Source of the DNA: an uncultured Ectothiorhodospiraceae bacterium
GTDB lineage: Bacteria > Pseudomonadota > Gammaproteobacteria > JAABTG01
Direction: 5' to 3'
Assembly (NCBI GenBank): GCA_964439835.1
Contig: CAYTPQ010000001.1
Span: forward strand, 84,120-148,119
Length of the DNA: 64,000 nucleotides
Shown here: piece by piece, positions 14,054 through 29,325 of the stretch
How the letters are laid out: every line of letters begins with the position of its first letter
How positions within the stretch are numbered: the stretch's first letter is position 1
The notes under the pieces: generated by a model
Told to the model about the DNA's origin: nothing
What the model saw: the letters and a program-made list of their open reading frames with translations, nothing else
The model's database searches: none
Program-made: the position numbers and the translations under genes

Positions 14054-16783
14054 ATGGGCTACGAAGGGAATCGTCCCGCCGCAGGCCGGGCCGGCGTCCT
14101 CGGCGCCGTGCGCGCCGGCGAGCGCCGGCTCGCGGCCTATCTGGTCCTGACCTTCTTCCTACTGAGCGCCGGCCTCGCGGTCGGTCGCGGCAGCGCCGAC
14201 GCCCTGTTCTTCAAGCGCTACGGCATCGAGTACCTACCGCTGGTGTTCCTGGCGCTGGGCGGCCTGCTCGCGGCGGCCGGGACGGTCTACGCGGCGTTCG
14301 TGGACCGCGTCCCGGCGGAGCGCTCGGGGTTGGTGATCGGCATCGTGCTGGCGGTCCTGCTCGCGGCCGGCTGGTGGGGGATGACCGCCACCCATGCCGA
14401 GGCCCTCTACCCGCTGTACTACCTGACCTACGAGGTGGCCTCCGAGCTGCTGCTCGTGCACACGCCGCTGTACCTGTCCCAGAACCTGGACACGCAGGCG
14501 GCCAAGCGGCTCTCGCCCCTGGTGTTCGCCGGCGGGCAGGTGGGCACGGTCTCCGGCGGGCTGCTGCTCGGGCTGGCCGCCGGCCACATCGAGGTTCAGG
14601 ACCTGCTGCTCGTGTGGGCGGGCTTGCTGGTCGCGGGCGTCGCGGCAACCGTGCTCTGGCACCGCCGCCAGGGCGCCTCGGCCTACTACCGGGCGCCGCG
14701 CAGGGAGGCCCGCCCGCTGCGGGCCGCGGCCGGCCAGGTCGCCGCCGGGGTGCGGCTGGCTCGGCACTCCCCGCTGGTGCGCCGGGCCTCGCTGTCCCTG
14801 TTCTTCCTCGTGATCGCCTTCTACGTCCTCGCCTATGCCGTGAACCGGGTCTACACCGAGACGTTTCCCGGCGAGGCGGAACTCGCGGCGTTCTTCGGGC
14901 TCCTGATCGCGGTCAACAGCCTGCTCGCCCTGCTGCTGCAGGTCTTCGTGACCGGCCGCCTGGTCGACCGCATCGGCCTGCGCCGGGCGAACCTGGTCTT
15001 TCCCCTCACCCTGATCGCGAGCTACGCCGCGCTGCTCGTCCACTTCGCACTGCCGTCCGCGGTCGCGGCCAGCGTCAGCAAGGACGCGGTGATGCCGGGG
15101 GTCCGCAACCCGGTACGGGCGATGTTCCTGAACGTCATGCCGCAGGGGCTGCAGGGGCGGGCGCGGGCCGTTCAAGTGCTGCTGGTGATGCCGCTCGCGC
15201 TGGCGGTGTCGGGGGCGGTGCTGTGGCTGGTCCAGGGGCTCGATGCCCCTCTCCTGTTCCTGGTGCCCGGAGCCCTTGCCGCGGCCCTCTACCTCTTCTA
15301 CAGCCACCGCATGAGCCAGGCCTACGCCGGCACCATCCTCGAACACCTGCAGGCCCGCGTCTGCCTCCCCCCCGACGACCTGGCGCAGGGCATGCAGGGG
15401 GCCGGTACCGATGCCTTCGCCGCCCTCGGGCGCGGGGTCGAGCACCCCGACGAAGAGGTAGTGGTCTCTTTCGCGCAGGTCCTGGTCGCCTCGTTCCCCG
15501 AGCGCGCGGCACCGGTCCTCCTCGCCCGCATGGGCGGCATGAGCAACGCCGGCGCCGACCGGCTGGTGCGCGTGCTCTCGACCGTGCCCGCCGGGCTGCG
15601 CCCGGTCTTGTGGGACCGCGCGCGGGCAGGCGACCCGCACCTGCGGGCGACGGTGCTGCGGGCGCTGGCGTCCCAGCCGGACGCCTTCTTCGCGGCGGAG
15701 GTCCGGCAGACGCTGGCGGCCCCAAACCCCCGGCTGGCCGCAGCCGCGGTCCACGGCGCGCTGCGGCTCGCCAACGCCTCACCGCGGCCGACCGCACTCC
15801 GGGTGTGGCAGGGCCTGTTGGAGGGCCCGACCGACGGCCGGCTGGCGGCGCTGGACCTGACTGCCAACCTGGCGCGGGTGGAGCCGGCCGAGCGGGAGCC
15901 GCTGCGCGAGGGTTACCGCGCCGCCTTCCGCTCGCTCCTCGGCCTCGACGATGAGACGGTCTCGCTGCGCGTGCTGCGGGCGCTGGCGGCCTGGGACGGG
16001 CCACCCCTGCCGGAGATCGAGCCGGCCGTGGTCGCGCTGGCCGCGGGGAGCAACCCGCTGTCAAGGGCCGCGGCGGTGTCGGCGGCACGCTGGCTTCCGG
16101 CGGTGGAGCGCCGGGAGGCGATCGCGCGGGAGGCGCTCGCGGACGGGCACCAGCGGGTGCGCGACGCCGCGACCGAGCTGCTCCTCGGCGGCGCGACCGG
16201 CGCCGCCTTCCGAGACCTGGCCCAGCGCTGGATAATCCTGGGCAGGCAGGGCTCGCCCAGGGCCCAGGCCACGCTGTTGGAGGCGCTGATGGCACAGGGC
16301 CTGCCGCACGCCGTGCTGGTGGCCGCCGCCCGGGCCCGGGCCGCAGACGCGCACTGGCTGGAGGAGGCCCTGGCCCCGGTCGAGGCGGCGGTGCGCTCCG
16401 GCCACCGGCGCTTCGCGCTGCTCGAGCAGACCCTGCGCGAGCGCGTCGCGCAGACCGTGGACGTCGCCCTCCTCGCCCTGCAGGGCAGCGGCGACGGCGA
16501 GTCCTTTGCCGCGGTGCGGGCGGCGCTGCGCAGCGGGGACGCGCGATTCCGCGCCGATGCGCGGGAGGCCCTGGCGAATCTGGGGGACCGAGAGGTCGTC
16601 GCCCTGCTGGCGGGCGTCCTTCGCGACCCGGAAGACCGGCTTCGGGCCACCGCCCCGGGCCGGTTCCGGGACGCCGACGAGGCAGCGCGCTGGTGCACGC
16701 TGCACGGGGACCCCTGGCTCAGCGCCTGCGCCCGCCACGCGGGGACGGGCGCCCCCTCCGCCGAGGCGGCCACCGTTGGTTGA
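14054..16783 (+). CDS. Polytopic MFS/nucleotide-translocase-like membrane domain fused to a C-terminal HEAT-repeat domain.
   Basis: 909 aa. About 12 predicted TM helices in the first ~430 aa. The C-terminal half is alpha-helical repeats (LRALA..., RVRDAATELL) consistent with HEAT/PBS lyase repeats. Confidence 0.7.
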   Translation: MGYEGNRPAAGRAGVLGAVRAGERRLAAYLVLTFFLLSAGLAVGRGSADALFFKRYGIEYLPLVFLALGGLLAAAGTVYAAFVDRVPAERSGLVIGIVLAVLLAAGWWGMTATHAEALYPLYYLTYEVASELLLVHTPLYLSQNLDTQAAKRLSPLVFAGGQVGTVSGGLLLGLAAGHIEVQDLLLVWAGLLVAGVAATVLWHRRQGASAYYRAPRREARPLRAAAGQVAAGVRLARHSPLVRRASLSLFFLVIAFYVLAYAVNRVYTETFPGEAELAAFFGLLIAVNSLLALLLQVFVTGRLVDRIGLRRANLVFPLTLIASYAALLVHFALPSAVAASVSKDAVMPGVRNPVRAMFLNVMPQGLQGRARAVQVLLVMPLALAVSGAVLWLVQGLDAPLLFLVPGALAAALYLFYSHRMSQAYAGTILEHLQARVCLPPDDLAQGMQGAGTDAFAALGRGVEHPDEEVVVSFAQVLVASFPERAAPVLLARMGGMSNAGADRLVRVLSTVPAGLRPVLWDRARAGDPHLRATVLRALASQPDAFFAAEVRQTLAAPNPRLAAAAVHGALRLANASPRPTALRVWQGLLEGPTDGRLAALDLTANLARVEPAEREPLREGYRAAFRSLLGLDDETVSLRVLRALAAWDGPPLPEIEPAVVALAAGSNPLSRAAAVSAARWLPAVERREAIAREALADGHQRVRDAATELLLGGATGAAFRDLAQRWIILGRQGSPRAQATLLEALMAQGLPHAVLVAAARARAADAHWLEEALAPVEAAVRSGHRRFALLEQTLRERVAQTVDVALLALQGSGDGESFAAVRAALRSGDARFRADAREALANLGDREVVALLAGVLRDPEDRLRATAPGRFRDADEAARWCTLHGDPWLSACARHAGTGAPSAEAATVG

Positions 16784-17326: not shown

Positions 17327-18067
17327 ATGTGTCAGCAACCTGCCAGGGCCCTCGCGATGGCCGCCGTGCTCGCGACCGGTCTGGGCGGGGCACCCGGCCC
17401 CGTGCCGGCCCAAGAGTCACTCTCGTCGGACCCCCACTACACACCGGCCGGCTTCTTTGACGTCCACGTCTGCAACTGGCCGGACCGCCCGCTCTTCTTC
17501 CTGGTGCTGTTCTCGACCGAGCGCTTCGCGGAGGTCAACGGCGTCGAGGTGACCGGGCCCGGGGGCGAGCCGGTCGCACGCCTCGACCCCGCGAAGTTCA
17601 TCCGGCTGGACCGCCCCGGCAAGCCCGAGAAGCGGGTATTCATCCAGCAGGTCGAGGTCCCCGCCGGCGCGGCCAACGGCTGGTACAAGGCGCGGGTGCG
17701 CCTGAGCGACGGCCAGGAGGTCCTCGGCCGCGACTACGTGGTGATCACGGCCCTGCCCCGGGCCGGCGGGTTGGCCCCGGCGCGGGACGCGACCGTCGGC
17801 CTGCCCGCCGTCTTCACCTGGGCGCCGGTGGCGGGTGCCGCCCGCTATCAGGTCTACCTCCGCGACCTGTGGCAGCCGGGCGATAATCCCGTCCACCAGT
17901 CGAAGCTCCTGACTGACACCCGCTACGAGGTCCCGGCGGAGGTGCTGAAGCCCGGCGGCCACTACTCCTGGAAGGTCCACGCCCGGGACGTGGACGAGCA
18001 CATCCTGCTGGGGGACTACAACCACGGCTCCCAGAGCGAGTGGACGCCCTTCGAAGTCGCGGAGTAG
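17327..18067 (+). CDS. Secreted hypothetical protein.
   Basis: ATG at 17327 behind an AGGAG RBS. Signal peptide MCQQPARALAMAAVLATGLGGAPGPVPAQE. No domain recognised by eye. Confidence 0.5.
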   Translation: MCQQPARALAMAAVLATGLGGAPGPVPAQESLSSDPHYTPAGFFDVHVCNWPDRPLFFLVLFSTERFAEVNGVEVTGPGGEPVARLDPAKFIRLDRPGKPEKRVFIQQVEVPAGAANGWYKARVRLSDGQEVLGRDYVVITALPRAGGLAPARDATVGLPAVFTWAPVAGAARYQVYLRDLWQPGDNPVHQSKLLTDTRYEVPAEVLKPGGHYSWKVHARDVDEHILLGDYNHGSQSEWTPFEVAE

Positions 18068-18078: not shown

Positions 18079-18226
18079 TCGACCACAAAGTACACGAAGG
18101 ACACGAATGGGATGGAGAACGCAATTTGCACGAGGGCGATCGGATGAGTCTGCGAACCCCTGGCTCGCCCTGGTTAGTTCCGTCTATCAAGTCCTTCGTG
18201 TCCTTTGTGTCCTTCGTGGTGGAAAG
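18079..18226. repeat. Hairpin element A, built from tandem 9-bp units flanked by ACCAC/GTGGT. Family with B (20358-20460) and C (56779-56892).
   Basis: Left arm ACCACAAAGTACACGAAGGACACGAA at 18083-18108. Right arm GTCCTTCGTGTCCTTTGTGTCCTTCGTGGTGG at 18191-18222. These are imperfect inverted repeats with a loop of about 80 nt. The element is AT-richer than its surroundings. Confidence 0.6.
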
Positions 18227-18986
18227 TCCACTCACCGAGTGGCGGCGTACTGGCATCGGGGTCGGCCTGGCCGCTCTGCTCGCGCTGGCGCCACCCCCCG
18301 GTGTGGCGGATACGGCCTCGGGGTCCCTGCCTGCCGCCTGCGCGGTCGACTGCGTGAGCCGCTACGGCGAGGTACTGGGCACGGCGGACCCCGGCGTGCC
18401 CGCCCACTCCAACTGCAGCTCGGCCTGCGTCTCGTTCGAGCCGCACGTGCGGGACGGGCGTTTCCTCGGCATGAAGTGGCAGTGTGTCGAGTACGCCCGC
18501 CGCTGGCTCTACACCGCCAAGGGCGCGGTCTTCGGCGACGTCGACGTGGCGGCCGACGTCTGGCGCAGGGTCGACGCCCTGACCCGAGTCGCGGACGGCG
18601 GCCGCATCGCTCTCACCGCTCACCCCAACGGCTCCCCGTCCCCTCCACGGCCCGGCGACCTGCTGGTCTACGGCGACGAGTTCCTCGGCACCGGCCACCT
18701 GGCCGTCGTCCTGCGGGTGGACCCCGCGGCGGGCACCGTGGAGGTCGCGGAGCAGAACTACGACAACCGCCCCTGGCCGGCCGACCACGCCCGTCGGATC
18801 GACCTGGTCGAGCGTGGCGGGAGGTTCTGGCTGCTGGACGCGTACCTGATTGGCTGGAAGCGCGCCGAGGGGTTACCCGAGGTCTCCAGTGACGTCGGAG
18901 CCCCGGGGGATCCCACCCCGTACCGTGATCCGGCGGCTGGGGTACAGGTCATCGGTCCCCCTGGGTCCCGGCTTACGCCGGAATGA
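18214..18986 (+). CDS. Secreted CHAP-domain (cysteine/histidine-dependent amidohydrolase/peptidase) protein.
   Basis: GTG start inside the right arm of hairpin A. Signal peptide RRTGIGVGLAALLALA. CHAP catalytic Cys context QCVEYARRW and His context GHLAVVLRVD. Confidence 0.7.
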
Positions 18987-19104: not shown

Positions 19105-20172
19105 ATGCTGAGCGAGGCCAGGGGGAAGTTGAACCGTCTGCGGGCCCGCTGCGCGCCCTTCACCCTGCTCAGTGGGCCGCGCGCGGCCGAGGCCATCGAG
19201 TCCCTGGCCGTGTTCGAGCTCCGCCCCGGCGAGTCGGTCACCGTGCGGCCGGGGACGCGCACGGACTACCTGTACGTGGTGGAAGGGGAGGTCGAGGTCA
19301 CCCCACCGGGTGGCCCGTCTACCCGGTACGTGCCGAGCGACACGGACGTGCGGCCGATCGAGCTCGAGGCGGGAGGCCCGCCGCTGACCATCTCGTCCGA
19401 AGGGTCCGGCCTGCTGGCGCGGGCCGACGGCGACACCCTCGACTACCTGCTCAGCTGGGAGACCCTGGGCACGGGCCTTGGCATCGAGAGCGAGGCCCTG
19501 CAGGCGCGCCTCGCCGCCGTCCGACGCTCGCTTGCCTTCCGGCGCATGCCCCTGGAGTGCGTCGAGGAGGCCTTCCGGCGCATGCGCCAGGTGCAGGTCC
19601 GCGCCGGCGAAGAGGTGGTGCGGCTCGGCGAGCCGGGAGACGCCTTCTACATCATCGAGTCGGGCCGGGCCGAGGTCTGGCGGCCGGGTCTTTACGACGA
19701 GGTGCCCCACAAGGTCGACGAGATGGGCCCGGGCGAGGCCTTCGGGGAGGAAGCGCTGCTCACAGGCGATGTACGCGGGGCGACCGTCCGCATGATCGAG
19801 GACGGTACCCTCCTGGTCATGGACAAGGCCGACTTCGAGGCCCTGATCGGCGCGCCGATGGTCGAGCACGTGGAGGCGAACATCGCCCAGGCCTGCCTCG
19901 ACTCCGGGTACATCCCGCTCGACGTCCGCTACGGCGAGGAGTTCGAGGAGGGCCACATACCCGGCGCGTTCATCATCCCGCTGCCCGAGCTGCGTCACCG
20001 CTTTCACGAGCTCGACCCGGCCGCCCGCTATCTGGTGTACTGCCGCAGCGGACGCCGCAGCGCGGTGGCCGCCCTGCTCATGAAGCAGCGAGGGCTGCAC
20101 GCCGTGAGTCTGCGCGAGGGCATCCGCGGCTGGCCCTTCGCCACGGAGGTCTCGACTGTAATCGAGCTGTAA
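19105..20172 (+). CDS. Protein with two cNMP-binding-like domains and a C-terminal rhodanese (sulfurtransferase) domain.
   Basis: ATG at 19105 behind a GGGAGG RBS. The first cNMP-like domain is degenerate. The second is clear (GEPGDAFYIIESGRAEV, GPGEAFGEEALL). The rhodanese domain has an active-site Cys (YLVYCRSGRRS). Confidence 0.8.
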   Translation: MLSEARGKLNRLRARCAPFTLLSGPRAAEAIESLAVFELRPGESVTVRPGTRTDYLYVVEGEVEVTPPGGPSTRYVPSDTDVRPIELEAGGPPLTISSEGSGLLARADGDTLDYLLSWETLGTGLGIESEALQARLAAVRRSLAFRRMPLECVEEAFRRMRQVQVRAGEEVVRLGEPGDAFYIIESGRAEVWRPGLYDEVPHKVDEMGPGEAFGEEALLTGDVRGATVRMIEDGTLLVMDKADFEALIGAPMVEHVEANIAQACLDSGYIPLDVRYGEEFEEGHIPGAFIIPLPELRHRFHELDPAARYLVYCRSGRRSAVAALLMKQRGLHAVSLREGIRGWPFATEVSTVIEL

Positions 20173-21123: not shown

Positions 21124-23932
21124 CGTCCCCCGCGGCACCGTCCGCACTGCCACCCGCAGCGCCCTCGGCCTGGCACGCCAGCCGACGGCCGACGACCGCC
21201 GCCAGGTTGAGCGAGAGCTGCGAGGTGATCCCGGGGAAGAGCCTACCGAGGTGCTGGACCCGGTTCCACTCGATCGACAGCGCCCGGGTCGCACCCACGG
21301 AAACGACGTCTGCGGTCCGCGGCGATTCGCACACCAGCGCGATCTCGCCGAACATCTCGCCCGGGCGCAGCTCGCGCACATGCCTGCGGGCCCCGTCGGA
21401 CGAGCGCTGCCAGACGCCGGCGGCGCCGTCCAGGATCACGAACATCTCCGACGCCCTCTCGCCCTGGCGGACGATCGCCTCGCCGCTCGCGTACTCGCGC
21501 AGGCCGCCGAGCAGCACCAGCTTCTTGACCTGCCAGGGCCGCAGGCCCCGAAAGAGCTCGCAGGTCCGGAGCACCTCCGGCCGGATCTGCAGCGTCAGGA
21601 GGTCGTAGAGCGTCACCAGCCGGACGGTGGAGATCAGGATGGGGAGCAGCAGGAGCGTCACCAGCAGGGCGACCAGCAGCACCATGGCGCTGAGCAGCCC
21701 GAAGTGGACGACCGGCGGGAAGCTCGACACCGCGAACACTGCGAAGCCGAGCGCTAGCGCCACCGCTGTGCTGACCATCGGCAGGACTTCGTCGCGCACG
21801 GTGTCCCGCAGCGCCTGGTCCTGATCGCCGTGGGCCTTGGTGTGCTGCTGGTAGCGGGCCATGAAGTGGAGATACAGCACGTCGCAGATCCCGAGAGAGA
21901 TCGACGCCACCATCGCCGTGCTGGTGTCGAGCGGGATCCCCAGGTACCCCATCACCCCGAACAGCGCCGCGATCGGGAACAGCATCGGCACGACGGCGAT
22001 GAGACCGGCCTTGGCGTTCACGTAGAGCAGCGAGACCACCAGCCAGATGACGAAGAACATCAGGGCGAGCGAGGAGGCCTGCCCGTAGGCGATGTTGTCG
22101 GTCGCCCGCTGGGCGAGCACCGCGTCGCCGGTGACCTCCACGTGCAGACCGGGGTCGATCTCACGCTCGACGAACGCCTCCAGCCCCGCCAGCGCCTCGC
22201 GCAGCTCACCCGAAGAGGACATGCCGTGGCGCACCAGGATCCGGGCCGTGCTGAAGTCGGCAGACACGTACGGGGCCACGTCCTTGTGGTCGACGAACAG
22301 CAGGTACTCGCGGACCACGTCGTCGGTCTCGGGCAGCCGCAGCTTGCCGGAGCGGTCCTCCTCCATCACCGCGTTCACGAACGCCACGAAGTCCGCGAAC
22401 GACATCGAGACGTCGAAGCGGCCGCTGGTCGCCAGGTACTCCTGGATCCGGCGCAGCTGCTGCAGGTAGTACACCTGCTGGAAGGTGCCGCGGATGTCCG
22501 CCCGGACCACGATGGAGAAGCTCTCGGCACCGGCGAGACTTGCGCGCAGTCGATCGAGGCGCTGCACCGTGGGCGAGTCGCTCGCGAAGTAGTCCAGGGG
22601 GTCGTTGTTCACGCGGACCTGGGCGGCGCCCCACAGCCAGGCCAGCGCCACGACCCCGAGCAGCCCGAGGGTCACCCAGCGGTGGGCGACGGCCGCCCCG
22701 ACCACGCGCACCGCGACCCGCTGCAGGCGGCCGTCGGCGAAGGTCCGCTCCCGCGCCGGACCGGCGGGGTGCCGCTCCGCGAGCGCCAGGTAGGCCGGGA
22801 TCAGGGTCACGGTGACCGCGAAGTTCAGCAGCAGGGCCGTGGACGAGACCAGTCCGAAGTCCCGCAGCAACTCGATGCCGCTCGCCGCGGTGGAGAGGAA
22901 GCCGACGTAGGTGGTGCCGAAGGTGAGCAGGACGGTCAGTCCCAGGCTGTCCCCCATCCTGAGGAGCGCCTCCCGGGTACCGATCCCCTCCTCCAGCCCG
23001 CCGTAGTAGTCGGCGATCAGGTGAGTGGCCTCGGAGGAACCGACGATCACGATGAGGGCGGGGACGATCGAGGTCAGGATGCTGACCGGGATCCCCACCG
23101 CCGCCATCAGCCCGAGGGTCCAGAGGATCGTGACACCACTTGTGAGCAGCGGGACGACGGCGGCGTTCGCCCGCCGCAGGGCCAGGGCCAGGGTCAGCAC
23201 CGAGACCCCGAGGGCGAGCGGGAGCACCCGCCACTGGTCGCGGTGGATGCTCTCCGTGATCGCCGCCCGCACGTAGGGCGAGCCGATCACGAAAGACTCC
23301 GCCAGGCTGCCCGCGAGGGGCCGCAGCGCCGCCTCGACCGCGGCGACCGCCTGCTCCTCGAAGTCGGCGGCCTCCGGCTTCCGCTGCAGCGAGACCAGCG
23401 CCACCATGGCCTGGCCATCGGTGGAGAGCAGGTTGCGCGCGACCAGCGGATTCCCCAGGGCGTCCCGCAGGACCTGCGCCGCCGCCTCCTCGGAGGCGGG
23501 GATCGGGTCCAGGTAGGGGCGGCTCGTCACCTGGCCGTCGACACTCTTGACGTTCTTCGCCGTGAACAGGCTCTCGACGTGAGCGACCTGGGGCAGCTCG
23601 GCAATCCGGTCGAGCACGGCCTTGACCTGGAGGAGCTTGGGCTCGGTCAGGAGGGCGGAGTCGCGGAAGAAGAGCGTCAGCGGCTCGTCCGCGCCGAAGG
23701 TCGCCTGGGTGCGGGCCAGCAGTGCCTTCGCCGGGTCACCCTGCAGGGTCATCCCCTCGGCGGAGATATGCAGGCGGAGGGACGGGAGTTGGGAGGCCGC
23801 GAGGGCGCTAAGCAGGACCAGCGCCAGGAGGACGCGCCAGGGGCGGGTTGCCGAGTAGCCGATGACCCGGTGCACCACGGAGCGCGTCCCTCGCTGGCAC
23901 CGGCCTGCAACCGGCACGGCGGAGTATAGCAA
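21089..23932 (-). CDS. MMPL/RND-superfamily (SSD) transporter with a C-terminal cytoplasmic cNMP-binding domain.
   Basis: 947 aa. Two 6-TM MMPL repeats with large periplasmic loops. C-terminal LFRGLRPWQVKKL...GEMFGEIALV...RTADVVS is a CAP-type cNMP domain. The 3' end overlaps convergent crp by about 35 nt. Confidence 0.8.
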   Translation of the reverse strand: MLYSAVPVAGRCQRGTRSVVHRVIGYSATRPWRVLLALVLLSALAASQLPSLRLHISAEGMTLQGDPAKALLARTQATFGADEPLTLFFRDSALLTEPKLLQVKAVLDRIAELPQVAHVESLFTAKNVKSVDGQVTSRPYLDPIPASEEAAAQVLRDALGNPLVARNLLSTDGQAMVALVSLQRKPEAADFEEQAVAAVEAALRPLAGSLAESFVIGSPYVRAAITESIHRDQWRVLPLALGVSVLTLALALRRANAAVVPLLTSGVTILWTLGLMAAVGIPVSILTSIVPALIVIVGSSEATHLIADYYGGLEEGIGTREALLRMGDSLGLTVLLTFGTTYVGFLSTAASGIELLRDFGLVSSTALLLNFAVTVTLIPAYLALAERHPAGPARERTFADGRLQRVAVRVVGAAVAHRWVTLGLLGVVALAWLWGAAQVRVNNDPLDYFASDSPTVQRLDRLRASLAGAESFSIVVRADIRGTFQQVYYLQQLRRIQEYLATSGRFDVSMSFADFVAFVNAVMEEDRSGKLRLPETDDVVREYLLFVDHKDVAPYVSADFSTARILVRHGMSSSGELREALAGLEAFVEREIDPGLHVEVTGDAVLAQRATDNIAYGQASSLALMFFVIWLVVSLLYVNAKAGLIAVVPMLFPIAALFGVMGYLGIPLDTSTAMVASISLGICDVLYLHFMARYQQHTKAHGDQDQALRDTVRDEVLPMVSTAVALALGFAVFAVSSFPPVVHFGLLSAMVLLVALLVTLLLLPILISTVRLVTLYDLLTLQIRPEVLRTCELFRGLRPWQVKKLVLLGGLREYASGEAIVRQGERASEMFVILDGAAGVWQRSSDGARRHVRELRPGEMFGEIALVCESPRTADVVSVGATRALSIEWNRVQHLGRLFPGITSQLSLNLAAVVGRRLACQAEGAAGGSADGAAGDATSASAASSGS

Positions 23933-24067: not shown

Positions 24068-24790
24068 CTACCGCTTGATCGCCCCGCGGTCGTCGGCCGC
24101 GACCTCGGCCAGACCCACCTGCTCCAGAAGGGCCGCGCGCTGGGCGCGCAGGCCGGCGTCGTTCGGGTTGCGGTCGATGAGCCGGGTGAGGGCGTCGAAG
24201 GCGTCGTACCAGAGCCCGGCCTCGGCGTAGAGCGCGGGCCGGGCGCGCTCGTTGGCCGCAGCGATGCGCGAGCGGGTCGTCGCATCGGCGGCAACGCGGC
24301 GAACGGTACCGCCCGCCGTGCTGTCGAGCGAGCGCTGGGCCGGGTCGCGGACCACCGACACGAACCACTGGTACTCCACGTCGGGCTTCAGGGTGATCCC
24401 CTGGCTCGCCAGGGGCACGGCGTGCAGGCCGGCAGACCCCGGAGCAGACAGTTTGCGCTCCAGGACCGGCTTCTCGGCGCCGTCGATCATCAGCGTCACC
24501 TCCACCGGCCCGTCCACCGGGCCCGAGGTGTACCAGTAGAGCGTGGGCTGAGCCTGGGTCGTCAGGCCGGTGTGGTCCGGGGCCAGCACCTCGACCGAGA
24601 CGTTCGACGGGTCAGCGCCGCGGGTGCCCCCGCCGACCCGGCTGGCCGGGGCGCCGCGCATGGGCGGCTTGTAGACCAGGGGGGACGCGTCGGCGCCAGT
24701 GGCCGCGGGGTCCGCAGCGAGAGCCGGGGCCGAAAGCCCGAAAATGCAGGAGAGTGCGAGGACGCTCGCCGATACCTTCCAGGTGCTCAT
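24068..24790 (-). CDS. Secreted DUF928-domain protein.
   Basis: Signal peptide MSTWKVSASVLALSCIFGLSAPALA. The PPMRGAPASRVGGGTRG motif is characteristic of DUF928. GGAGG RBS. Confidence 0.75.
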   Translation of the reverse strand: MSTWKVSASVLALSCIFGLSAPALAADPAATGADASPLVYKPPMRGAPASRVGGGTRGADPSNVSVEVLAPDHTGLTTQAQPTLYWYTSGPVDGPVEVTLMIDGAEKPVLERKLSAPGSAGLHAVPLASQGITLKPDVEYQWFVSVVRDPAQRSLDSTAGGTVRRVAADATTRSRIAAANERARPALYAEAGLWYDAFDALTRLIDRNPNDAGLRAQRAALLEQVGLAEVAADDRGAIKR

Positions 24791-24913: not shown

Positions 24914-24943
24914 TGTGACGTATTCACGTGTGAATAGGTCACA
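24914..24943. promoter_or_regulatory. 30-bp near-perfect palindrome with CRP-like half sites, in the divergent DUF928 / hypothetical-gene intergenic region.
   Basis: TGTGACGTATTCACGTGTGAATAGGTCACA: outer half sites TGTGAC...GTCACA and inner half sites TTCACGTGTGAA. An extra GTCACAG lies at 24901-24907. Confidence 0.4.
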
Positions 24944-25028: not shown

Positions 25029-25331
25029 ATGACCGCGACCATCGCAACCCTCGAGCCCGTCTCCAGCTGGTGGCAGACCCTCGGCCTGGGCAGCGTCTGG
25101 GGCTTCGGCCGCGACTCCGGGCGCTCAGTCCGCCGCCCCAGCAGCGTCAGCACAAAGGGCACCGATACCCACTACGCCGGGCGCCGGATGCGGGTCGGCA
25201 CCGGCTACTGCGGGACCGTCGAGCTGACCGGCCGCTACACGCTGAGCCCGCATACCGAGGTGCGGCTCTACGAGGACACCGAGGGCCGTCTTCACTACCT
25301 GGCCAATCTGCGGCCGGCCGCCAGCGCCTAG
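25029..25331 (+). CDS. Hypothetical protein.
   Basis: ATG within ORF 24915-25331 (MTATIATLEP...). No recognisable domain. Coding status uncertain. Confidence 0.3.
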   Translation: MTATIATLEPVSSWWQTLGLGSVWGFGRDSGRSVRRPSSVSTKGTDTHYAGRRMRVGTGYCGTVELTGRYTLSPHTEVRLYEDTEGRLHYLANLRPAASA

Positions 25332-25403: not shown

Positions 25404-27239
25404 GTGAAGACCGAGACCCTCCAGCATTCCCCGATCCAGCGTTACCTGGACACCCTGCACGCCGAACTGGCGGACCTGCGGGGCGGCGAGGTCGCCAGCT
25501 ACATCCCGGAACTCTCCCACGCCGACCCCGAGTGGTTCGGCATCGCGCTGGTGACCGTCGACGGCCACGTCTACCAGTCCGGGCAGAGCCGCCAGCCCTT
25601 CACCGTACAGTCGATCTCCAAGGCCCTGGTCTACGGCCTGGCGCTGGACGACCACGGGGTCGACCCGGTACTGGCCAAGGTGTGGGTGGAGCCCTCGGGC
25701 GAGGCCTTCAATTCGATCAGCCTGGAGCCCGGTACCGGCCGGCCCCGCAACCCGATGATCAACGCCGGCGCCATCGCCACTGCCGGGCTGATCAAGCGCG
25801 AGGAGAGCCTCGGGCCGATGCAGCGCATCCTCGCGGCCTTCGCCCGCTATACCGGGCACCCTGCCGAGGTCGACGAGAAGGTCTACTTGTCGGAGAAGGA
25901 GACGGGGCACCGCAACCGCGCCATCGCCCACCTCCTGCTCGGCCACGGGATCCTGGACCGGGAGCCCGAGGAGGTGCTCGACATCTACTTCCAGCAGTGC
26001 TCGATCCTGGTCACCGCTCGCGACCTGGCGCTGATGGGCGCCTGCCTCGCCAACAGCGGCGTCAACCCCATCACCGGCGTCCAGGCCCTGAAGAGCGAGC
26101 ACGTGGAGAAGGTCCTGAGCGTCATGACCTCCTGCGGCATGTACGACTACTCGGGCGCCTGGATCTACGACGTCGGCATGCCCGCGAAGAGCGGCGTCGG
26201 CGGCGGGATCCTGGCCGTGCTGCCGGGGCAGTTCGGGCTCGGCGTGTTCTCGCCGCCGCTGGATGCCAAGGGCAACAGCGTGCGCGGCATCGAGGCGTGC
26301 AAGCGGATCTCCCGGGACTTCAAGCTGCACGTCTTCAACGTCGCCCACTCCACCTCGAACACCGCCATCCGCGTGCGCTACGACGCCACCACGGTGCGCT
26401 CGCGGCGGGTGCGCCCGGCCGACGAAGTCGCGGCGCTCAACGAGCACGGCAACCGGATCCAGGTCTATGAGCTGCAGGGCGAGCTGCGCTTCGGCGCCGC
26501 CGAGTCGATCGTCCAGCAGATCCTGGAGGGCGCGGAGAGCCTCGACTACCTGGTGGTCGACCTGAAGCGCGTGTTCGAGCTCGACCACGCGACGCGGGAG
26601 ATCTTCGCCCGGCTGGCCGACGCGATGGAGGCCGCCGGCAAATCGGTGCTGTTCGCCCACACCCGCGAGCACTACCGGTTCCGCCGGCACCTGCTGCGGC
26701 ACTTCCCCGACGCCGAGATGGGCCCCCTCCTGGCGCACGACGACGTGGATCACGCACTCGAGTGGTGCGAGGAGCACCTCCTGCGCGACAAGCTGGGGCA
26801 TGCCCCGGGCGCGGCACAGGTCGGCGGGTGCGCCGACCAGTTCCTCTGCCGGGGCATGACGGCGACCGAGATCGGGTCGCTCCAGAGCAAGGCCCGCCAG
26901 GTCCGCTTTGCCAAGGGCGAGTCCGTGTTCCGCGCCGGCGACGCGGCGGACTCCTTCTTCTTCATCCTGAGCGGGGAGGTGGAGGTGTACGTCGCCACGG
27001 ACTCCCGGCGCGAGGTCCGCCTGGCCACGCTGGGCGCCGGCAACGCCTTCGGCGAGCTGTCGATGCTGGATCAGCGCCGGCGCACCGCCGACGTGCGCGC
27101 CGTGGTGGACACCGAGTGCCTGGAGGTCCACTTCGACGTCCTGGACGAGGCCGTGAAAACGCGCCTCCTGCTGAACCTGGCCGCCCAGCTCGCCCAGCGG
27201 CTCAGCCGCGACGCCAAGGAGATCCGGCAGCTCGGCTAA
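25404..27239 (+). CDS. glsA: Glutaminase (GlsA-type serine-dependent beta-lactamase fold) fused to STAS and cNMP-binding domains.
   Basis: Glutaminase motifs QSISK and NPMINAGAI. A middle STAS-like segment (LDYLVVDLKRVFELDHA). C-terminal CAP-type cNMP domain (FILSGEVEVYV, GAGNAFGELSML, RTADVRA). Confidence 0.85.
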   Translation: MKTETLQHSPIQRYLDTLHAELADLRGGEVASYIPELSHADPEWFGIALVTVDGHVYQSGQSRQPFTVQSISKALVYGLALDDHGVDPVLAKVWVEPSGEAFNSISLEPGTGRPRNPMINAGAIATAGLIKREESLGPMQRILAAFARYTGHPAEVDEKVYLSEKETGHRNRAIAHLLLGHGILDREPEEVLDIYFQQCSILVTARDLALMGACLANSGVNPITGVQALKSEHVEKVLSVMTSCGMYDYSGAWIYDVGMPAKSGVGGGILAVLPGQFGLGVFSPPLDAKGNSVRGIEACKRISRDFKLHVFNVAHSTSNTAIRVRYDATTVRSRRVRPADEVAALNEHGNRIQVYELQGELRFGAAESIVQQILEGAESLDYLVVDLKRVFELDHATREIFARLADAMEAAGKSVLFAHTREHYRFRRHLLRHFPDAEMGPLLAHDDVDHALEWCEEHLLRDKLGHAPGAAQVGGCADQFLCRGMTATEIGSLQSKARQVRFAKGESVFRAGDAADSFFFILSGEVEVYVATDSRREVRLATLGAGNAFGELSMLDQRRRTADVRAVVDTECLEVHFDVLDEAVKTRLLLNLAAQLAQRLSRDAKEIRQLG

Positions 27240-27249
27240 ACGCCCCCGA

Positions 27250-27370
27250 ACATGGTGTGCGGCGGAAGCCGCACCTACGGGTCTGCTGTAGGGCCGCCGC
27301 AGGGCCGGCTTTAGCCGGCCATTCCTCCGTAGGCCCGGCCACCCCGTGCGGCTGAAGCCGCACCTACGGG
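27250..27370. repeat. REP/BIME-like palindromic elements between convergent genes.
   Basis: Two copies of GTGCGGC(N4)GCCGCACCTACGGG (27255-27281, 27345-27369) flank GGCCGGCTTTAGCCGGCC (27307-27324). The same two motifs recur at 43534-43558 and 43584-43601. Confidence 0.5.
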
Positions 27371-29325
27371 CTTTCAACCGGGGCGGCCGCTCCCCCGCCC
27401 CCCACCTGGAGCGCGAAGACGTTCACGACCTCGGCCTTGCCCTTGAGCTGCAGGCCGCCGACCGGGCGGACCGGGAAGGCGTCGCGCAGCCGGCGGACGG
27501 TGGACTCGGCGATCATCACCCGGCAGGGGCAGGTCGGGTCGTCGCTGGCGACCTCCTTGCCGTAGCTCTCCAGCCGCGCCGCGGTGTTCACCACGTCGCC
27601 GATGGTGGTGTACTTCATGCGCCGGGCGCTGCCGATGCAGCCCGCGACCACCGGGCCGGTGGCAATGCCGAGGCGCATCCGCACCATCGGCAGGCCCTGC
27701 TCGGCCCACACCGCGTTCATGCGGCCCATCTCGCGGGCCATGGCGAGGGCGCACTCCACCGCGTTGCGGGCGTCCTGCTCGATCTCCTCGTTGGTGGTGC
27801 GCACCACCGGCACGCCGAAGTTGGCCTTGATGGCGTCGCCGTAGTAGTCGTCGACCACCCCCCCATGGGCCATGACGAGCCCGGCCATAGTCTCCATGTA
27901 CTCGTTGAGCCAGTCCATCAGCCCCTCGGGCGTCAGGCGCTCGGCCACCGGGGTGAAGTTCTCCAGGTCCGAGAACAGCACCGTGACGATGTGGGTACGC
28001 GCCTCGATGCGTCCCCCGGCCAGGAACTTCTCGCGCTCGCGCCAGAGCTCCTCGGCGACGTCGGGGCTCACCTGCTTGGCGAAGATGTCCATCAGGAAGC
28101 GCCGCTCCGAGCGCTCGAAGCCCGAGATGTACGCCACCACCAGGGTCGCCGAGGCGAACATGGCCATCGCCGCCGGGACGATCGGCAGCCACCACCCGTA
28201 GAGGAAAGCGCCGAAGGTCAGGGCCGTGAGCGCGAGCCAGGCGGGCGGGGCGACGATGGCGAACCGCCCGAGCGATCGGACCAGCAGCGCGAGGCCGGCC
28301 CCGAGCACGCTCCAGAAGAAGATCCAAGCGTACTCCAGGGGCTCGGACAGGAACCGTGGCGGCCGGTCCCCGTCCATCGCCATGCGCAGCAGCTGGCTGG
28401 TCGCGTGGGCGTGCAGGAACACCCCCGGGACGTTGGCGATGCCGCCGGCGCCCCGGCTGTAGGGCGTGAGGAAAAGGTCCTTCACGCTGTCGGCAGCAAC
28501 GCCGATCAGCACGATGCGGTCACGGAGCGCGCCCTCCGGTACCCGGCCCTCCAGCAGCTCGGTCAGGGTGTGGGACTCGAAGGGCTTGGCGCCGCCCTTG
28601 TAGTCCAGCAGGAACTGGTAGCCCGCGGCGTCCGCCCCCGAGTAGCCTCCGTCGTGGGACTCCAGCGGCACCAGAGTCACCTGGCCGAGGCGAAGGTAGG
28701 TCGGGTCCGGCTCACCGGGCTGGGGCGAGACGCCCTCCCGCGCGAGGTAGAGCAGTGCCAGGCGCAGGGAGAGGGAGTAGCCGACCCGCTCGCCGTCGTC
28801 CAGGAACAGCAACCCCCGGCGTACCGCGCCGCCCGGGTCGAGCACCAGGTCGGCGAACCCCACCTGCTCGCTGCCGACCAGCACCGAGGGCGGCGGCACG
28901 ATCGCCCCGCCCACCGCCCGGAACTTCTCGATCGCGACGATGTTCGGGCGCGCGGTCAGCAGGGCCTCGAAGCGCTCGGTCCCCGGGGCCACGGCCAGGT
29001 CCCGGTAGAGGTCGAACCCGACCGCCCGCGGCTCGCCGCGCAGGATGGCCTCCAGCACGTCCGCCAGCATGGCGTCGCTCAAGGGCCACTGACCGAGCCG
29101 GTGGATGTCCTCGTCGGTGGCCCGGATGACCGCGACCCGCCGGTCCTGCCAGCCGTGCTCGGGCCGCAGCCGCAGGTAGGCGTCGTAGGCCGCCAGCTCC
29201 ATCGCCTGCAGGTACCCGAGCGCCCGCAACCCCGCCACCACCAGGAACACGGAGAGCGCCACCCCGATGCTGACCACCCCGGGCTGGCGAAAGATCTTCG
29301 GCACGCGTTGCGATAACGGGGACAT
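27364..29325 (-). CDS. CHASE2 sensor domain fused to a class III adenylate/guanylate cyclase (membrane-anchored).
   Basis: N-terminal TM, CHASE2-like periplasmic region, 3 TM helices, then cyclase-homology-domain motifs (VTVLFSDLENFTPVAERL, GDAIKANFG, GIATGPVVAG). Confidence 0.85.
   Translation of the reverse strand: MSPLSQRVPKIFRQPGVVSIGVALSVFLVVAGLRALGYLQAMELAAYDAYLRLRPEHGWQDRRVAVIRATDEDIHRLGQWPLSDAMLADVLEAILRGEPRAVGFDLYRDLAVAPGTERFEALLTARPNIVAIEKFRAVGGAIVPPPSVLVGSEQVGFADLVLDPGGAVRRGLLFLDDGERVGYSLSLRLALLYLAREGVSPQPGEPDPTYLRLGQVTLVPLESHDGGYSGADAAGYQFLLDYKGGAKPFESHTLTELLEGRVPEGALRDRIVLIGVAADSVKDLFLTPYSRGAGGIANVPGVFLHAHATSQLLRMAMDGDRPPRFLSEPLEYAWIFFWSVLGAGLALLVRSLGRFAIVAPPAWLALTALTFGAFLYGWWLPIVPAAMAMFASATLVVAYISGFERSERRFLMDIFAKQVSPDVAEELWREREKFLAGGRIEARTHIVTVLFSDLENFTPVAERLTPEGLMDWLNEYMETMAGLVMAHGGVVDDYYGDAIKANFGVPVVRTTNEEIEQDARNAVECALAMAREMGRMNAVWAEQGLPMVRMRLGIATGPVVAGCIGSARRMKYTTIGDVVNTAARLESYGKEVASDDPTCPCRVMIAESTVRRLRDAFPVRPVGGLQLKGKAEVVNVFALQVGGGGAAAPVESP

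Follow-up and report, generated by a model that had tools for sequence, protein, structure and literature searches.

The question raised by this locus is whether a receptor cyclase and the cyclic-nucleotide-binding (CNB) domains crowded beside it belong to one signalling system or were brought together by accretion. In the initial annotation of the window (the whole 64-kb stretch of DNA that was analysed), seven consecutive genes at 14054-29325 were described as carrying six CNB domains or making the nucleotide. By Pfam profile search, five cNMP_binding domains and one CHASE2 class III cyclase were found in this region; the genes number 11, and the CNB or cyclase genes (6/11) are not consecutive, being interrupted by genes for a secreted protein, a CHAP protein and a DUF928 protein and by a 100-aa ORF. 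The five domains scored 71.6-93.6 bits (gathering threshold of PF00027, 27.5 bits), so that the concern that the CNB-like regions might fail the cNMP_binding models does not apply to them, whereas the presumed sixth is a degenerate copy, described below. When the CNB HMM was run on the six-frame translation of the whole 64 kb, all five domains fell in the interval 16.8-27.2 kb, with no match in the remaining ~49 kb of the window; the CNB domains of the entire window are thus packed into 10.4 kb beside the cyclase. The phosphate-binding cassette (FGE...R[S/T/G]A) was kept in 5/5 (FGEM..PRSA, the Gly variant FGEE..VRGA, FGEL..PRTA, FGEI..PRTA and FGEL..RRTA), and with such functional-looking cassettes the five proteins are predicted to bind nucleotide. 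The functions given below for all genes of the cluster are likewise predictions from sequence.

The first gene (14054-16783, plus strand) encodes an MFS-like membrane protein with HEAT repeats (Pfam HEAT_2, 5e-9; MFS_1, 8.5e-6, at 25.4 bits below the Pfam cut-off of 33.4), for which hydropathy indicated about 12 hydrophobic segments, the long C-terminal half with the HEAT repeats being cytoplasmic. Pfam detected no CNB domain in it; the CNB domain of the proposed MFS/HEAT transporter partner is encoded by the adjacent gene for a stand-alone CNB protein of ~149 aa (16776-17225, plus strand; Pfam cNMP_binding, 3e-22), which has a TTG start, an 8-nt overlap with the MFS/HEAT stop and the cassette FGEMNLVDELPRSA. 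The third gene of this operon (17327-18067, plus strand) encodes a secreted protein with a signal peptide, for which no Pfam family and no PDB match was found and the AF2 single-sequence model was unusable (pLDDT 44). It is followed by a gene for a CHAP-domain amidase (18144-18986, plus strand; Pfam CHAP, 3.3e-10), which matched the amidase region of NCBIfam NF007801 at 1.7e-28, far under the equivalog cut-off; the protein resembles the glutathionylspermidine amidase domain and is probably exported.

The protein of 355 aa encoded at 19105-20172 (plus strand; the same length was obtained from an independent gene call) had been read as a double-CNB rhodanese. One CNB domain (Pfam, 4.9e-20) and the rhodanese domain (2e-13; 51.1 bits, cut-off 22.2) were recovered, the latter with the catalytic-loop Cys (CRSGRRS), by which the protein is predicted to be a rhodanese sulfurtransferase. 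The N-terminal copy is homologous to CNB (hhalign against the CNB profile, 96.4%, E 1.2e-9), but it lies below the PF00027 threshold here (CNB HMM iE 0.06), gave weak Cupin_3/Cupin_2 matches only and lacks the phosphate-binding cassette in the alignment to the CNB profile; from its sequence it is a degenerate pseudo-CNB. The family is widespread (624 representatives at E<1e-30), and the N-domain still matches Pfam cNMP_binding in 6/28 of its members.

On the opposite strand (21089-23878) lies the gene for an MMPL/HAE3-type RND transporter of 929 aa with a C-terminal CNB domain (Pfam MMPL, 1e-31, 110.5 bits, cut-off 20.5; CNB, 5.5e-20), an architecture common to about 67 full-length homologues. 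By its profile scores the protein is assigned at the level of the RND superfamily, its match to TIGR00921 HAE3 (191.6 bits) lying under the cut-off of that model (351.9). Further along, the 100-aa ORF (25029-25331, plus strand), which was also predicted as a gene when independent contigs were annotated and has homologues in L089 and L093, matched no Pfam family and precedes the gene for a protein of 611 aa comprising glutaminase A, STAS and CNB domains (25404-27239, plus strand; Pfam Glutaminase, 1.7e-117; STAS, 1.9e-5; CNB, 2e-22). The glutaminase part scored 351.3 bits against NCBIfam TIGR03814 (cut-off 255.4) and contains the S-x-x-K catalytic motif (SISK), as expected of the glutaminase A family. 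Pfam thus bore out the Crp, the MMPL-CNB and glutaminase-STAS-CNB fusions and the CHASE2-class III cyclase of the initial annotation, together with its CHAP and DUF928 genes.

The cyclase gene (27364-29325, minus strand; Pfam CHASE2, 4.9e-61; Guanylate_cyc, 1.6e-24) encodes a receptor with one transmembrane segment, a periplasmic CHASE2 domain, three further transmembrane segments and the catalytic domain, according to hydropathy. Alignment to CyaB, Cya2 and CyaC located the two metal-binding Asp (FSD, YGD) and the Asn/Arg pair (VNTAARLES), the catalytic residues of a class III nucleotidyl cyclase. The substrate-specifying residues, through which a decision between cAMP and cGMP had been proposed, could be read, but they matched neither rule: Asp stands in place of the adenine-specifying Lys (VVD-D-YYGD), a departure from the Lys paired with Asp or Thr of class III adenylyl cyclases, and Thr stands at the second position. 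Guanylyl cyclases have Glu at the first and C/S/T/H/A/G at the second specificity position (PMC4215837), to which Thr conforms, while the Asp at the first shares the acidic character of Glu but has a shorter side chain; an Asp in place of the Lys agrees with neither the adenylyl nor the guanylyl cyclase rule (PMC4215837), and no characterised cyclase with Asp first and Thr second was found. The family is highly conserved (at least 53% identity over 120 homologues); the residue at the Lys position is Asp in 109, Asn in 11 and Lys in 0 of the best 120 homologues, and Asp in 68, Lys in 7 and Asn in 4 of the wider cyclase family, of which the seven members with Lys retain Lys/Thr. Because Asp replaces the adenine-specifying Lys, the predicted product is given as a 3',5'-cyclic nucleotide that may be either cAMP or cGMP.

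The Crp-family regulator (20482-21123, plus strand; Pfam CNB, 7.4e-27; HTH_Crp_2, 2.3e-12) has an R-E-x-x-x-R recognition helix, of the kind that reads TGTGA, and Leu/Thr at the positions of T127/S128 in CAP. Its score of 123.4 bits against the NCBIfam CRP model (cut-off 266) places it outside the CRP equivalog, while Crp-family membership stands; the nearest solved structures are M. tuberculosis CRP, GlxR and CAP, and the protein places in the cAMP-activated main cluster (clusters, PMC10127613). The CRP-like palindrome reported at 24914-24943, between the DUF928 gene and the 100-aa ORF and glutaminase genes, does contain TGTGA/TCACA half-sites, but it consists of two TGTGA-N5-TCAC(A/G) palindromes that adjoin each other (the perfect one at 24929-24943), whose N5 spacing is one base short of the canonical CRP spacing, and TGTGA-N6-TCACA sites were absent from the 64 kb. 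Even with 2 mismatches allowed it is the only Crp-type operator in the window, which does not bear out the coherent regulon that had been suggested. L089 also has the perfect site, and in the 712 kb of cyclase loci six perfect N5 sites and no perfect N6 sites were counted, with ~0.23 perfect N5 sites expected from base composition (a rough estimate). In L124, L127, L128 and L130, crp genes are preceded by N5 sites, several of these at short distance. The palindromes at 24914-24943 are therefore regarded as a probable operator of the local Crp, as judged from the DNA.

The region of interest does not end at 29325, since the functional unit extends to genes at 34030-46367. The invariant part of the locus consists of a PEP-CTERM protein, a TpsA-like exoprotein, TpsB, a periplasmic TPR-CHAT protease, the CHASE2 cyclase and DUF928, and this six-gene core is complete in the window, where it reaches 46367 and is broken by insertions, and also in L091, L173 and L174. 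Two PEP-CTERM paralogues are encoded in the window, at 34030-35193 (plus strand; Pfam PEP-CTERM, 3.8e-5, 24 bits, cut-off 20.7) and, directly upstream of the TPS gene, at 36875-38044 (plus strand; 2e-6); in L091, L173 and L174 a PEP-CTERM gene is placed between the TPS and cyclase genes. The TpsA-like exoprotein (38298-41738, plus strand; Pfam TPS, 3.9e-28, 99.5 bits) has a TPS domain followed by Gly-rich beta-helix repeats, and the TpsB outer-membrane transporter (41726-43510, plus strand) has POTRA_2 (1.6e-22, 79.6 bits) and ShlB (2.3e-28, 100 bits) domains; the two genes overlap at 41726-41738, as in two-partner secretion, and are linked to the cyclase in about 23 and about 24 loci, respectively. 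The TPR and CHAT (caspase-like protease) protein (44085-46367, minus strand; Pfam CHAT, 3.2e-55; TPR_12) is placed in the periplasm because of its N-terminal signal peptide, export signals being found on the CHAT, TPS, ShlB and DUF928 proteins, and its gene is immediately upstream of the cyclase in 20/39 informative loci. DUF928 (24068-24790, minus strand; Pfam DUF928, 8.2e-38), a periplasmic protein with a signal peptide, contains the invariant disordered motif YKPPxRGAPxxRVGGGTRG, a beta-sandwich and TPR-like helices. It had been listed as one of the interleaved secreted genes, which it is, but it is more than that: it lies downstream of the cyclase in 52/59 informative loci and is a near-obligate cyclase partner. 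In the window, opposite-strand genes separate the cyclase from DUF928 and a toxin-antitoxin insert separates it from the TPS genes; from this spacing by inserts the region is taken to be plastic.

To survey recurrence, 80 metagenomic loci were taken with cyclase homologues as anchors. CNB density in the cyclase flanks was 6.7 per 100 kb, about 8-fold that of MMPL-anchored control loci (~0.8, counting extra CNB domains), the control value coming from genomes other than those of the cyclase loci. No CNB was present in 60/80 cyclase loci, many of those loci being short, and none within 10 kb downstream in L173 and L174; distant genomes retain the sensory core alone. Gene order in L089 (95% identical) is the same as in the window, and L127 has nearly the whole effector set. 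The operon of MFS/HEAT, CNB and secreted-protein genes is complete in four cyclase loci and partial in four more: MFS/HEAT homologues (30-57% identical) adjoin the cyclase-DUF928 pair in L094, L098, L103, L104, L107 and L127, the stand-alone CNB gene (48-82% identical across loci) always follows the MFS/HEAT gene in another reading frame and is never fused to it, and secreted-protein homologues (42-50% identical) come directly after it in L098, L104, L105, L107 and L127, while the contig of L106 carries only the secreted-protein gene of the operon.

The glutaminase-CNB, Crp and MMPL-CNB genes recur in six, six and five cyclase loci, respectively, in varying order. Glutaminase-CNB adjoins the cyclase in L089, L090, L100, L104, L105 and L107 and is near MMPL-CNB in L014, L016 and L019, and in other lineages a cyclase gene is directly upstream of MMPL-CNB (L007, L009, L011, L025, L069 and L088); most of the genome loci anchored on MMPL-CNB (n=80) are without any other island gene. 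The CHAP gene, counted earlier as part of the ensemble, is present in the window, but in the cyclase-anchored loci neither it nor CNB-rhodanese is linked to the cyclase outside this species. The CNB partners near the cyclase family are diverse (Crp, SpoIIE, SulP-STAS, MscS, Na/H exchanger, ion channel, glutaminase and MMPL), and the closest relatives all belong to one gammaproteobacterial lineage. The synteny of the island is lineage-specific and modular. With the ~8-fold CNB excess and effector units recurring beside the cyclase, the cluster is not due to chance; the claim of a cyclase-linked cNMP cluster stands, and the genes are not merely scattered in relatives, since the MFS/HEAT operon, glutaminase-CNB, Crp and MMPL-CNB recur near the cyclase.

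The reading that we prefer, with a probability of roughly 0.62, is that the region encodes the effectors of a second-messenger system run by a receptor cyclase, in which the core module would drive the cyclase and the nucleotide would bind the five local CNB proteins; it is supported by the five intact cassettes and by a cyclase with the metal Asp pair and the Asn/Arg pair. The extracytoplasmic module (PEP-CTERM, TpsA-like exoprotein with TpsB, TPR-CHAT protease and DUF928 as adaptor) would control the CHASE2 cyclase, which would form cAMP or cGMP. The nucleotide, presumably supplied to these particular proteins and acting allosterically through their CNB domains, would control the HAE3/MMPL-type RND exporter via its fused CNB, the MFS/HEAT transporter through the stand-alone CNB partner, the glutaminase through STAS-CNB, the rhodanese sulfurtransferase, and transcription via Crp reading TGTGA-N5-TCACA. 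As the signal we would guess an event involving a surface or envelope protein, which TPS/CHAT/DUF928 would pass on; that CHAT cuts DUF928 at its invariant Arg-rich N-terminal peptide as a step of the relay is a tentative and rather doubtful suggestion. Embedded with a receptor cyclase, CHAT, DUF928 and PEP-CTERM, the TPS pair may have a sensory or relay role, replacing or alongside adhesin or toxin export. A bolder version, which we consider doubtful, is that the TPS/CHAT/DUF928 core with the Asp/Thr CHASE2 cyclase is an unrecognised, widespread envelope-surveillance pathway, in which CHASE2 would sense a secretion- or protease-coupled event, for example the cutting of the DUF928 peptide by CHAT, and the cyclase family would have moved off ATP, most plausibly to GTP. 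If so, the organism would run a dedicated cGMP (or other non-cAMP) circuit, with direct gating of export by the RND protein, of MFS transport, of the glutaminase and of sulfur transfer.

The CNB proteins might instead each respond to a cAMP pool common to the whole cell, with no special tie to this cyclase, their genes being clustered by mere accretion in a plastic region. The locus-to-locus variation of the gene sets, the isolation of most MMPL-CNB genes from other island genes, the core without CNB neighbours in L173 and L174, and the toxin-antitoxin modules and opposite-strand insertions within the core of the window all agree with accretion, and the taxa are apparently CNB-rich anyway, as judged from the extra CNB domains of the control loci. 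Such a pool does not account for the 8-fold excess in the cyclase flanks over those same controls, nor for the adjacency of cyclase and MMPL-CNB, which came about in several lineages and involves different cyclases; four effector units, moreover, are found again and again beside the cyclase in differing orders, which argues for selection and against one inherited arrangement, and we hold this explanation to be unlikely. Horizontal acquisition of a genomic island whose genes were co-transferred without shared function would explain the Dam-type methyltransferase on one flank, the toxin-antitoxin modules on the other and the lower GC (65-67%) of the 30-38 kb stretch; it is quite improbable, however, as GC (69-74%) and GC3 at 14-29 kb equal those of the housekeeping genes of the window, no tRNA or integrase is among the annotated genes, and the components are rearranged rather than co-linear in relatives, the closest of which are confined to the single lineage named above.

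A Pycsar-like anti-phage system, in which a pyrimidine cyclic nucleotide would be made on infection and the CNB effectors would kill or arrest the cell, resembles the locus in having a class III-like cyclase and CNB effectors. Against the PADLOC models, the cyclase domain gave matches to PycC (best 4.2e-24), and the CNB domains matched PycTIR in its CNB part, but these domain-level matches are confined to the shared cyclase and CNB domains, and DUF928, MFS/HEAT and CHAP gave no defence matches. The purine-specifying Lys is absent and toxin-antitoxin genes are nearby, as such a system would allow; no TIR or Pycsar membrane effector was found, however, and the effectors are of housekeeping type (transporters, glutaminase, sulfurtransferase and transcription factor), while the cyclase is a periplasm-sensing CHASE2 receptor with the high conservation noted above, whereas defence genes evolve fast. 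A defence function is thus very improbable.

The preferred reading, a receptor cyclase serving local CNB effectors, has partial precedents. CNB-regulated channels and enzymes include MloK1, bCNG/MscS-CNB channels and mycobacterial CNB-acetyltransferase. Genes for MscS-CNB and ion-channel-CNB proteins occur near the cyclase family. The earlier statement that a single Crp serves canonical bacterial cAMP signalling was overstated, and CNB-fused enzymes and channels are a known theme; the principle proposed here, direct allosteric control of a non-transcriptional effector by a fused or paired CNB, is shared with the cAMP-sensing EAL phosphodiesterase Bd1971 (PMC6717892), whereas here several effectors are clustered with a presumed cyclase. 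In the literature search, no published description was found of MMPL/HAE3-CNB, glutaminase-STAS-CNB, pseudoCNB-CNB-rhodanese or MFS/HEAT with stand-alone CNB, and to that extent the ensemble does appear undescribed. Classical cAMP-CRP (E. coli CAP, M. tuberculosis CRP, C. glutamicum GlxR) shares CNB and HTH domains, the cassette residues, the R-E-x-x-x-R helix and the half-sites with the local Crp, which differs in N5 rather than N6 spacing, Leu/Thr and the score below the NCBIfam cut-off, and which is one of five local receptors instead of the sole one.

The closest parallel in signalling architecture, Sinorhizobium meliloti CyaD1/CyaD2/CyaK-NsrA-Clr (PMC13001267, PMC7529298, PMC10127613), shares the inner-membrane CHASE2 class III cyclase and, as predicted here, output through a Crp-family regulator with a bound cyclic nucleotide. 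In S. meliloti, sensing of a protein signal by the CHASE2 cyclases depends on an outer-membrane protein, and the output runs via the Crp-like Clr (PMC13001267, PMC7529298). There, activation by an external protein passes via an outer-membrane beta-barrel, NsrA, a ~1200-aa protein unlike ShlB (PMC7529298); here the candidate outer-membrane partner is the genetically linked ShlB, with TpsA-like cargo, CHAT protease and DUF928, none of which is reported for S. meliloti, Asp is at the usual substrate-Lys position, mostly CNB-fused transporters and enzymes stand beside the cyclase in place of one regulator, and the local Crp resembles M. tuberculosis CRP and CAP more than it does Clr. A metacaspase-CHASE2 fusion is known from Trichodesmium (PMC3501461). 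The TPS-domain exoprotein followed by a POTRA_2/ShlB gene in an overlapping frame is shared with two-partner secretion of the FhaB/FhaC type, whereas the pair here sits in a module with receptor cyclase, CHAT, DUF928 and PEP-CTERM. That core, missed in the first reading of the sequence, constitutes a conserved, undescribed candidate module for envelope sensing. DUF928 itself appeared in a single paper of the literature searched; its nearest comparison, the C-terminal domain of MtxA (PDB 4z29), shares only 15% identity and belongs to a protein without established biochemical function, and DUF928 adds to it the invariant disordered Arg/Gly-rich N-terminal peptide.

The initial annotation described a cyclic-nucleotide signalling cluster at 14054-29325, and this cluster is real and non-random, its genes recurring beside the cyclase in relatives, while the interpretation attached to it was only partly right; the functional statements made here rest on sequence, models and gene linkage. 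Because the window has about 71% G+C, genes were called by third-position GC and then checked with Pfam and NCBIfam, and independent gene calls on metagenome contigs of the same species matched the resulting models of the island. Eleven genes were located within 14054-29325. Those on the forward strand encode an MFS/HEAT membrane protein (14054-16783), a stand-alone CNB (cNMP-binding, PF00027) protein (16776-17225, with a TTG start and an 8-nt overlap with the preceding stop), a secreted protein of no family (17327-18067), a CHAP amidase (18144-18986), a CNB-rhodanese protein of 355 aa (19105-20172), Crp (20482-21123), a 100-aa ORF (25029-25331) and a glutaminase-STAS-CNB protein (25404-27239). 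Those on the reverse strand encode an MMPL/RND transporter with a C-terminal CNB domain (MMPL-CNB, 21089-23878), a DUF928 protein (24068-24790) and the CHASE2 class III cyclase (27364-29325).

Five CNB domains scored 71.6-93.6 bits, far above the Pfam threshold, with the phosphate-binding cassette kept in all five. When the six-frame translation of the window was searched with the CNB HMM, exactly five matches were obtained, all at 16.8-27.2 kb, and no further CNB domain was found in the other ~49 kb. A sixth domain had been claimed in the rhodanese protein, whose N-terminal pseudo-CNB has lost the cassette. The family profile of this N-domain was aligned with the CNB profile by hhalign (96.4%, E 1.2e-9), and Pfam cNMP_binding still matched it in 6 of 28 family members; the domain is, as judged from these profiles, real as a CNB fold but degenerate, a relic. 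The pseudoCNB-CNB-rhodanese architecture is itself that of a large family, for which 624 cluster representatives were found at E<1e-30. The MFS/HEAT protein carries no CNB domain, and the count therefore becomes five functional-looking CNB domains and one relic; nor are the CNB and cyclase genes consecutive, since other genes are interleaved among them. An apparent MFS/HEAT-CNB fusion in one relative was rejected as merely an extended open frame in GC-rich DNA, the two parts being in different frames at every locus by tblastn. A PDB sequence search with the MFS/HEAT protein returned designed HEAT-like repeats only, and the same search with the secreted protein (17327-18067) returned no match; its single-sequence AF2 model was unusable (pLDDT 44).

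For synteny, MMPL-CNB was taken as the first anchor, giving 80 genome loci (GTDB) at 33-50% identity (nearest ~49%). Most of these were without any other island gene, the island not being kept at such a distance, and this anchor was set aside for the cyclase, which was far more informative. Even so, a class III cyclase gene, of differing types, lies directly upstream of MMPL-CNB in five loci, and a glutaminase-CNB gene with extra CNB genes follows it in three. The cyclase family is large and well conserved (997 matches at E<=1e-20); as the second anchor it gave 80 metagenome loci at 47-74% identity, which were annotated by locally built HMMs. Beside the cyclase-DUF928 pair in relatives, the operon of MFS/HEAT, stand-alone CNB and secreted protein was found whole in four loci and in part in four others, with the MFS/HEAT and CNB genes separate and in different frames in all of them, and glutaminase-CNB recurred in six loci, Crp in six and MMPL-CNB in five. 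Locus L089 (95% identical) has the gene order of the window, the 100-aa ORF included; of the closer metagenomic relatives reached through MMPL-CNB, L088 (63% identical) reads cyclase, DUF928, MMPL-CNB on a single strand, and L087 (78% identical) reads DUF928, MMPL-CNB. L127 combines cyclase, DUF928, secreted protein, CNB, MFS/HEAT, Crp and MMPL-CNB in an order unlike that of the window. The CHAP and CNB-rhodanese genes did not recur in the 80 cyclase-anchored loci.

The CNB effectors near this cyclase family are highly varied. Pfam assigned, among 34 CNB-bearing ORFs of the cyclase loci, Crp (6), STAS (5), SpoIIE (4), glutaminase, MMPL, SulP and MscS (2 each), and a Na/H exchanger, an ion channel and a metallo-beta-lactamase fold (1 each), together with many stand-alone CNB proteins. 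L087 and L088 continue with other CNB effectors, namely a CNB-SpoIIE phosphatase with RsbW-like kinase and RsbV-like STAS partners; this set, absent from the window, adjoins cyclase-DUF928(-MMPL-CNB) at 4088-6153 in L087, 6354-8441 in L088 and 12911-14966 in L091, where it would be a partner-switching module under cyclic-nucleotide control.

Around the cyclase a more constant unit was recognized. In 52 of the 59 loci with sufficient sequence, the cyclase is followed by DUF928 within 1.5 kb and on its own strand; on the upstream side, the end of a CHAT domain falls within 1.5 kb in 20 of 39, and a TpsA-like TPS gene with ShlB (TpsB) is near the cyclase in about 24 of 80. L091, L173 (on a 6.8-Mb replicon) and L174 (a Comamonadaceae isolate) share one layout: a ShlB-TPS-PEP-CTERM operon converges with CHAT-TPR on one side and diverges from a cyclase-DUF928 operon on the other. 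Within 10 kb downstream, no CNB genes were found in L173 and L174; the shared core is therefore the invariant unit, and the CNB effectors gathered around it are lineage-specific. The entire core is present in the window with the same topology, as two PEP-CTERM paralogues (34030-35193 and 36875-38044) with a glycosyltransferase gene between them, TPS (38298-41738), ShlB (41726-43510) and CHAT-TPR (44085-46367, reverse strand), and is broken by two insertions. One consists of the 100-aa ORF and the glutaminase gene between cyclase and DUF928; the other, a lower-GC stretch at 29540-32832, separates the first PEP-CTERM gene from the cyclase and is crowded with small regulatory and toxin-antitoxin genes (ParE, Phd/YefM, HTH_3, DUF433, PIN), and L089 has a Phd gene at the matching position. 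The proposed receptor-cyclase/CNB system is best described with boundaries at about 14054-46367.

Signal peptides are present on CHAT-TPR, TPS, ShlB and DUF928, so the parts of the core would all meet outside the cytoplasm. An AF2 model of DUF928 from 37 homologues was confident (pLDDT 83) and showed a beta-sandwich followed by TPR-like helices; conservation is highest in a disordered peptide at the N-terminus, YKPPxRGAPxxRVGGGTRG, which carries invariant Arg and Gly. The one paper found to mention DUF928 remarks on its position beside a CHASE2 gene in Nostoc punctiforme. We infer that DUF928 is a periplasmic adaptor or co-receptor for CHASE2; that the Arg-rich peptide might be a substrate of the CHAT protease or a signal is speculation. 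The link between CHAT and CHASE2 is in keeping with a metacaspase-CHASE2 fusion known from Trichodesmium (PMC3501461).

Chance co-location of these genes is contradicted by the recurrence statistics, with 6.7 CNB per 100 kb of cyclase flank against ~0.8 extra CNB per 100 kb in MMPL-anchored loci, though this control density is drawn from other genomes. Acquisition as a mobile island is not supported, since the base composition of the island is that of the surrounding housekeeping genes, no tRNA genes or Rfam families (riboswitches included) were found in the window, no integrase is among its annotated genes, and co-linearity does not back it either. A Pycsar anti-phage system could be suspected from PADLOC matches; these are limited to shared domains and the effector content is contrary, and this reading is excluded. 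Exact island proteins were found solely on metagenome-derived contigs, and the MMPL-CNB homologues are named as Gammaproteobacteria of sulfur-oxidising lineages (tubeworm and lucinid symbionts, Thiodiazotropha, Sedimenticola, Thiolapillus, Chromatiales), with some from Desulfobacterota.

The catalytic domain of the cyclase could be aligned with P. aeruginosa CyaB, Synechocystis Cya2 and Spirulina CyaC, with both metal-binding Asp residues and the Asn/Arg pair in place. By the published rule, Lys with Asp/Thr specifies ATP and Glu with C/S/T/H/A/G specifies GTP (PMC4215837). The window cyclase has Asp at the first position, against Lys in CyaB and CyaC and Glu in the guanylyl cyclase Cya2, and Thr at the second. 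The first position is Asp in 109, Asn in 11 and Lys in none of the best 120 of 997 homologues, and the cyclase loci gave Asp in 68, Lys/Thr in 7 and Asn/Thr in 4. The pairing of Thr with an acidic first residue is closer to the guanylyl cyclase pattern, though without characterised precedent; Asn/Asp variants such as Rv1900c stay adenylyl cyclases. Crp of the window is closest to the main cluster of cAMP-activated regulators (M. tuberculosis CRP, GlxR, CAP), with Clr, which has dual specificity, more distant (comparison based on PMC10127613), and it has Leu/Thr at the base-contacting positions of CAP T127/S128. T127L was considered as a cGMP switch and dropped: PMC11445507 backs altered CAP allostery only, so the Leu was given little weight. 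The product is estimated to be cAMP at roughly 45%, cGMP at 35% and both or another at 20%. The family, with about a thousand homologues in the search, is annotated by sources as 'adenylate cyclase' despite Asp in place of the adenine-specifying Lys, so a large group of cyclases may carry the wrong specificity assignment. In two tubeworm symbiont loci (L009 and L011, about 5200-10000), another non-canonical cyclase, with Arg/Asp as specificity residues (EKIRTIGD ... HYDVWGD), is directly upstream of MMPL-CNB, with rhodanese-like domains a few kb upstream.

The CRP-like palindrome at 24914-24943 consists of TGTGACGTATTCACG and TGTGAATAGGTCACA, abutting. A search of the 64-kb window at up to one mismatch gave no other match and no canonical N6 site. 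The perfect site of this pair is kept in L089, and 712 kb of cyclase-anchored loci held 6 perfect N5 and 0 perfect N6 sites, with ~0.23 of each expected by an estimate from base composition. Just upstream of a crp-like gene adjoining the cyclase, TGTGAATATTTCACA was found in three loci and as a one-mismatch copy in a fourth. Crp of the window carries the R-E-x-x-x-R helix, the reader of TGTGA. With the N5 excess, the crp-upstream copies and this helix, 24914-24943 is very likely a true operator, of a Crp subfamily with an unusual 15-bp geometry, and it is predicted to serve the divergent promoters of DUF928 and of the 100-aa ORF/glutaminase; the N5 spacing is a small, clear departure from the textbook site. 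The island-wide regulon proposed with it was abandoned, as the site stands at a single location and a two-mismatch search added none inside the island.

The crp ATG (20482) is preceded, at a distance of 35 nt, by an element at 20365-20448 in which CACAGAGAG, a 9-nt unit repeated in tandem x4.8, comes before its inverted complement, GCTCTGTGG x3. The hairpin predicted from the two is very stable (-55.9 kcal/mol, z -5.45) and might act on crp expression as a terminator, attenuator or REP-like element. A hairpin of like design, CACGAAGGA x2.7 and GTCCTTCGT x3.1 (18084-18107 and 18191-18218), flanks the CHAP start codon, its second arm coding for an SFVSFVSFV stretch, and its 9-nt unit occurs alone at 56860-56888 by the ATPase operon, a distribution that points to a small family of dispersed repeats.

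Among characterised systems, the closest is that of S. meliloti, whose CHASE2 cyclases CyaD1, CyaD2 and CyaK sense a protein signal via NsrA, an outer-membrane protein, with the Crp-like regulator Clr as their output (PMC13001267, PMC7529298). NsrA was considered as a TpsB homologue; it is described in PMC7529298 as a ~1200-aa protein with a C-terminal barrel, and TpsB membership is therefore not claimed. That CNB domains can directly control effectors other than transcription factors is an established principle (e.g. PMC6717892). Three features are new: the conserved envelope module of six genes that includes DUF928, the cyclase clade with Asp for Lys, and the particular effector set beside the cyclase. 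CHASE2 is among the commonest bacterial extracytoplasmic sensor domains, and to our knowledge its ligands are essentially unknown; DUF928, as a near-obligate periplasmic partner, and the CHAT/TPS/ShlB/PEP-CTERM neighbourhood offer a testable lead on its sensing. The RND exporter, the glutaminase, the MFS/HEAT transporter (via a separate CNB subunit) and the sulfurtransferase are candidate new direct targets of cyclic nucleotides, and their genes, lying beside that of the presumed cyclase, make a compact system for reconstitution.

Several neighbours were also recorded. A PP2C-type phosphatase fused to a C-terminal FGE-sulfatase (formylglycine-generating-enzyme-like) domain is encoded at 3185-5122, and FGE-sulfatase domains are fused to caspase-like domains in prokaryotic metacaspases (PMC3501461). 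Just upstream of the island lie genes for a DUF255 thioredoxin-like protein (8122-9996) and a 984-aa multihaem cytochrome c/TPR protein (10041-12995), the end of the latter being overlapped by an ORF for a Dam-type D12 adenine methyltransferase (12886-13833). Two very large proteins with FG-GAP/ASPIC(UnbV) repeats are encoded downstream of the CHAT gene, at 46812-50708 and 52517-55891, and a V/A-type ATPase operon, with subunit D and an A/B-family catalytic subunit by Pfam, occupies 56901-63985 on the reverse strand in what is apparently a gammaproteobacterial host.
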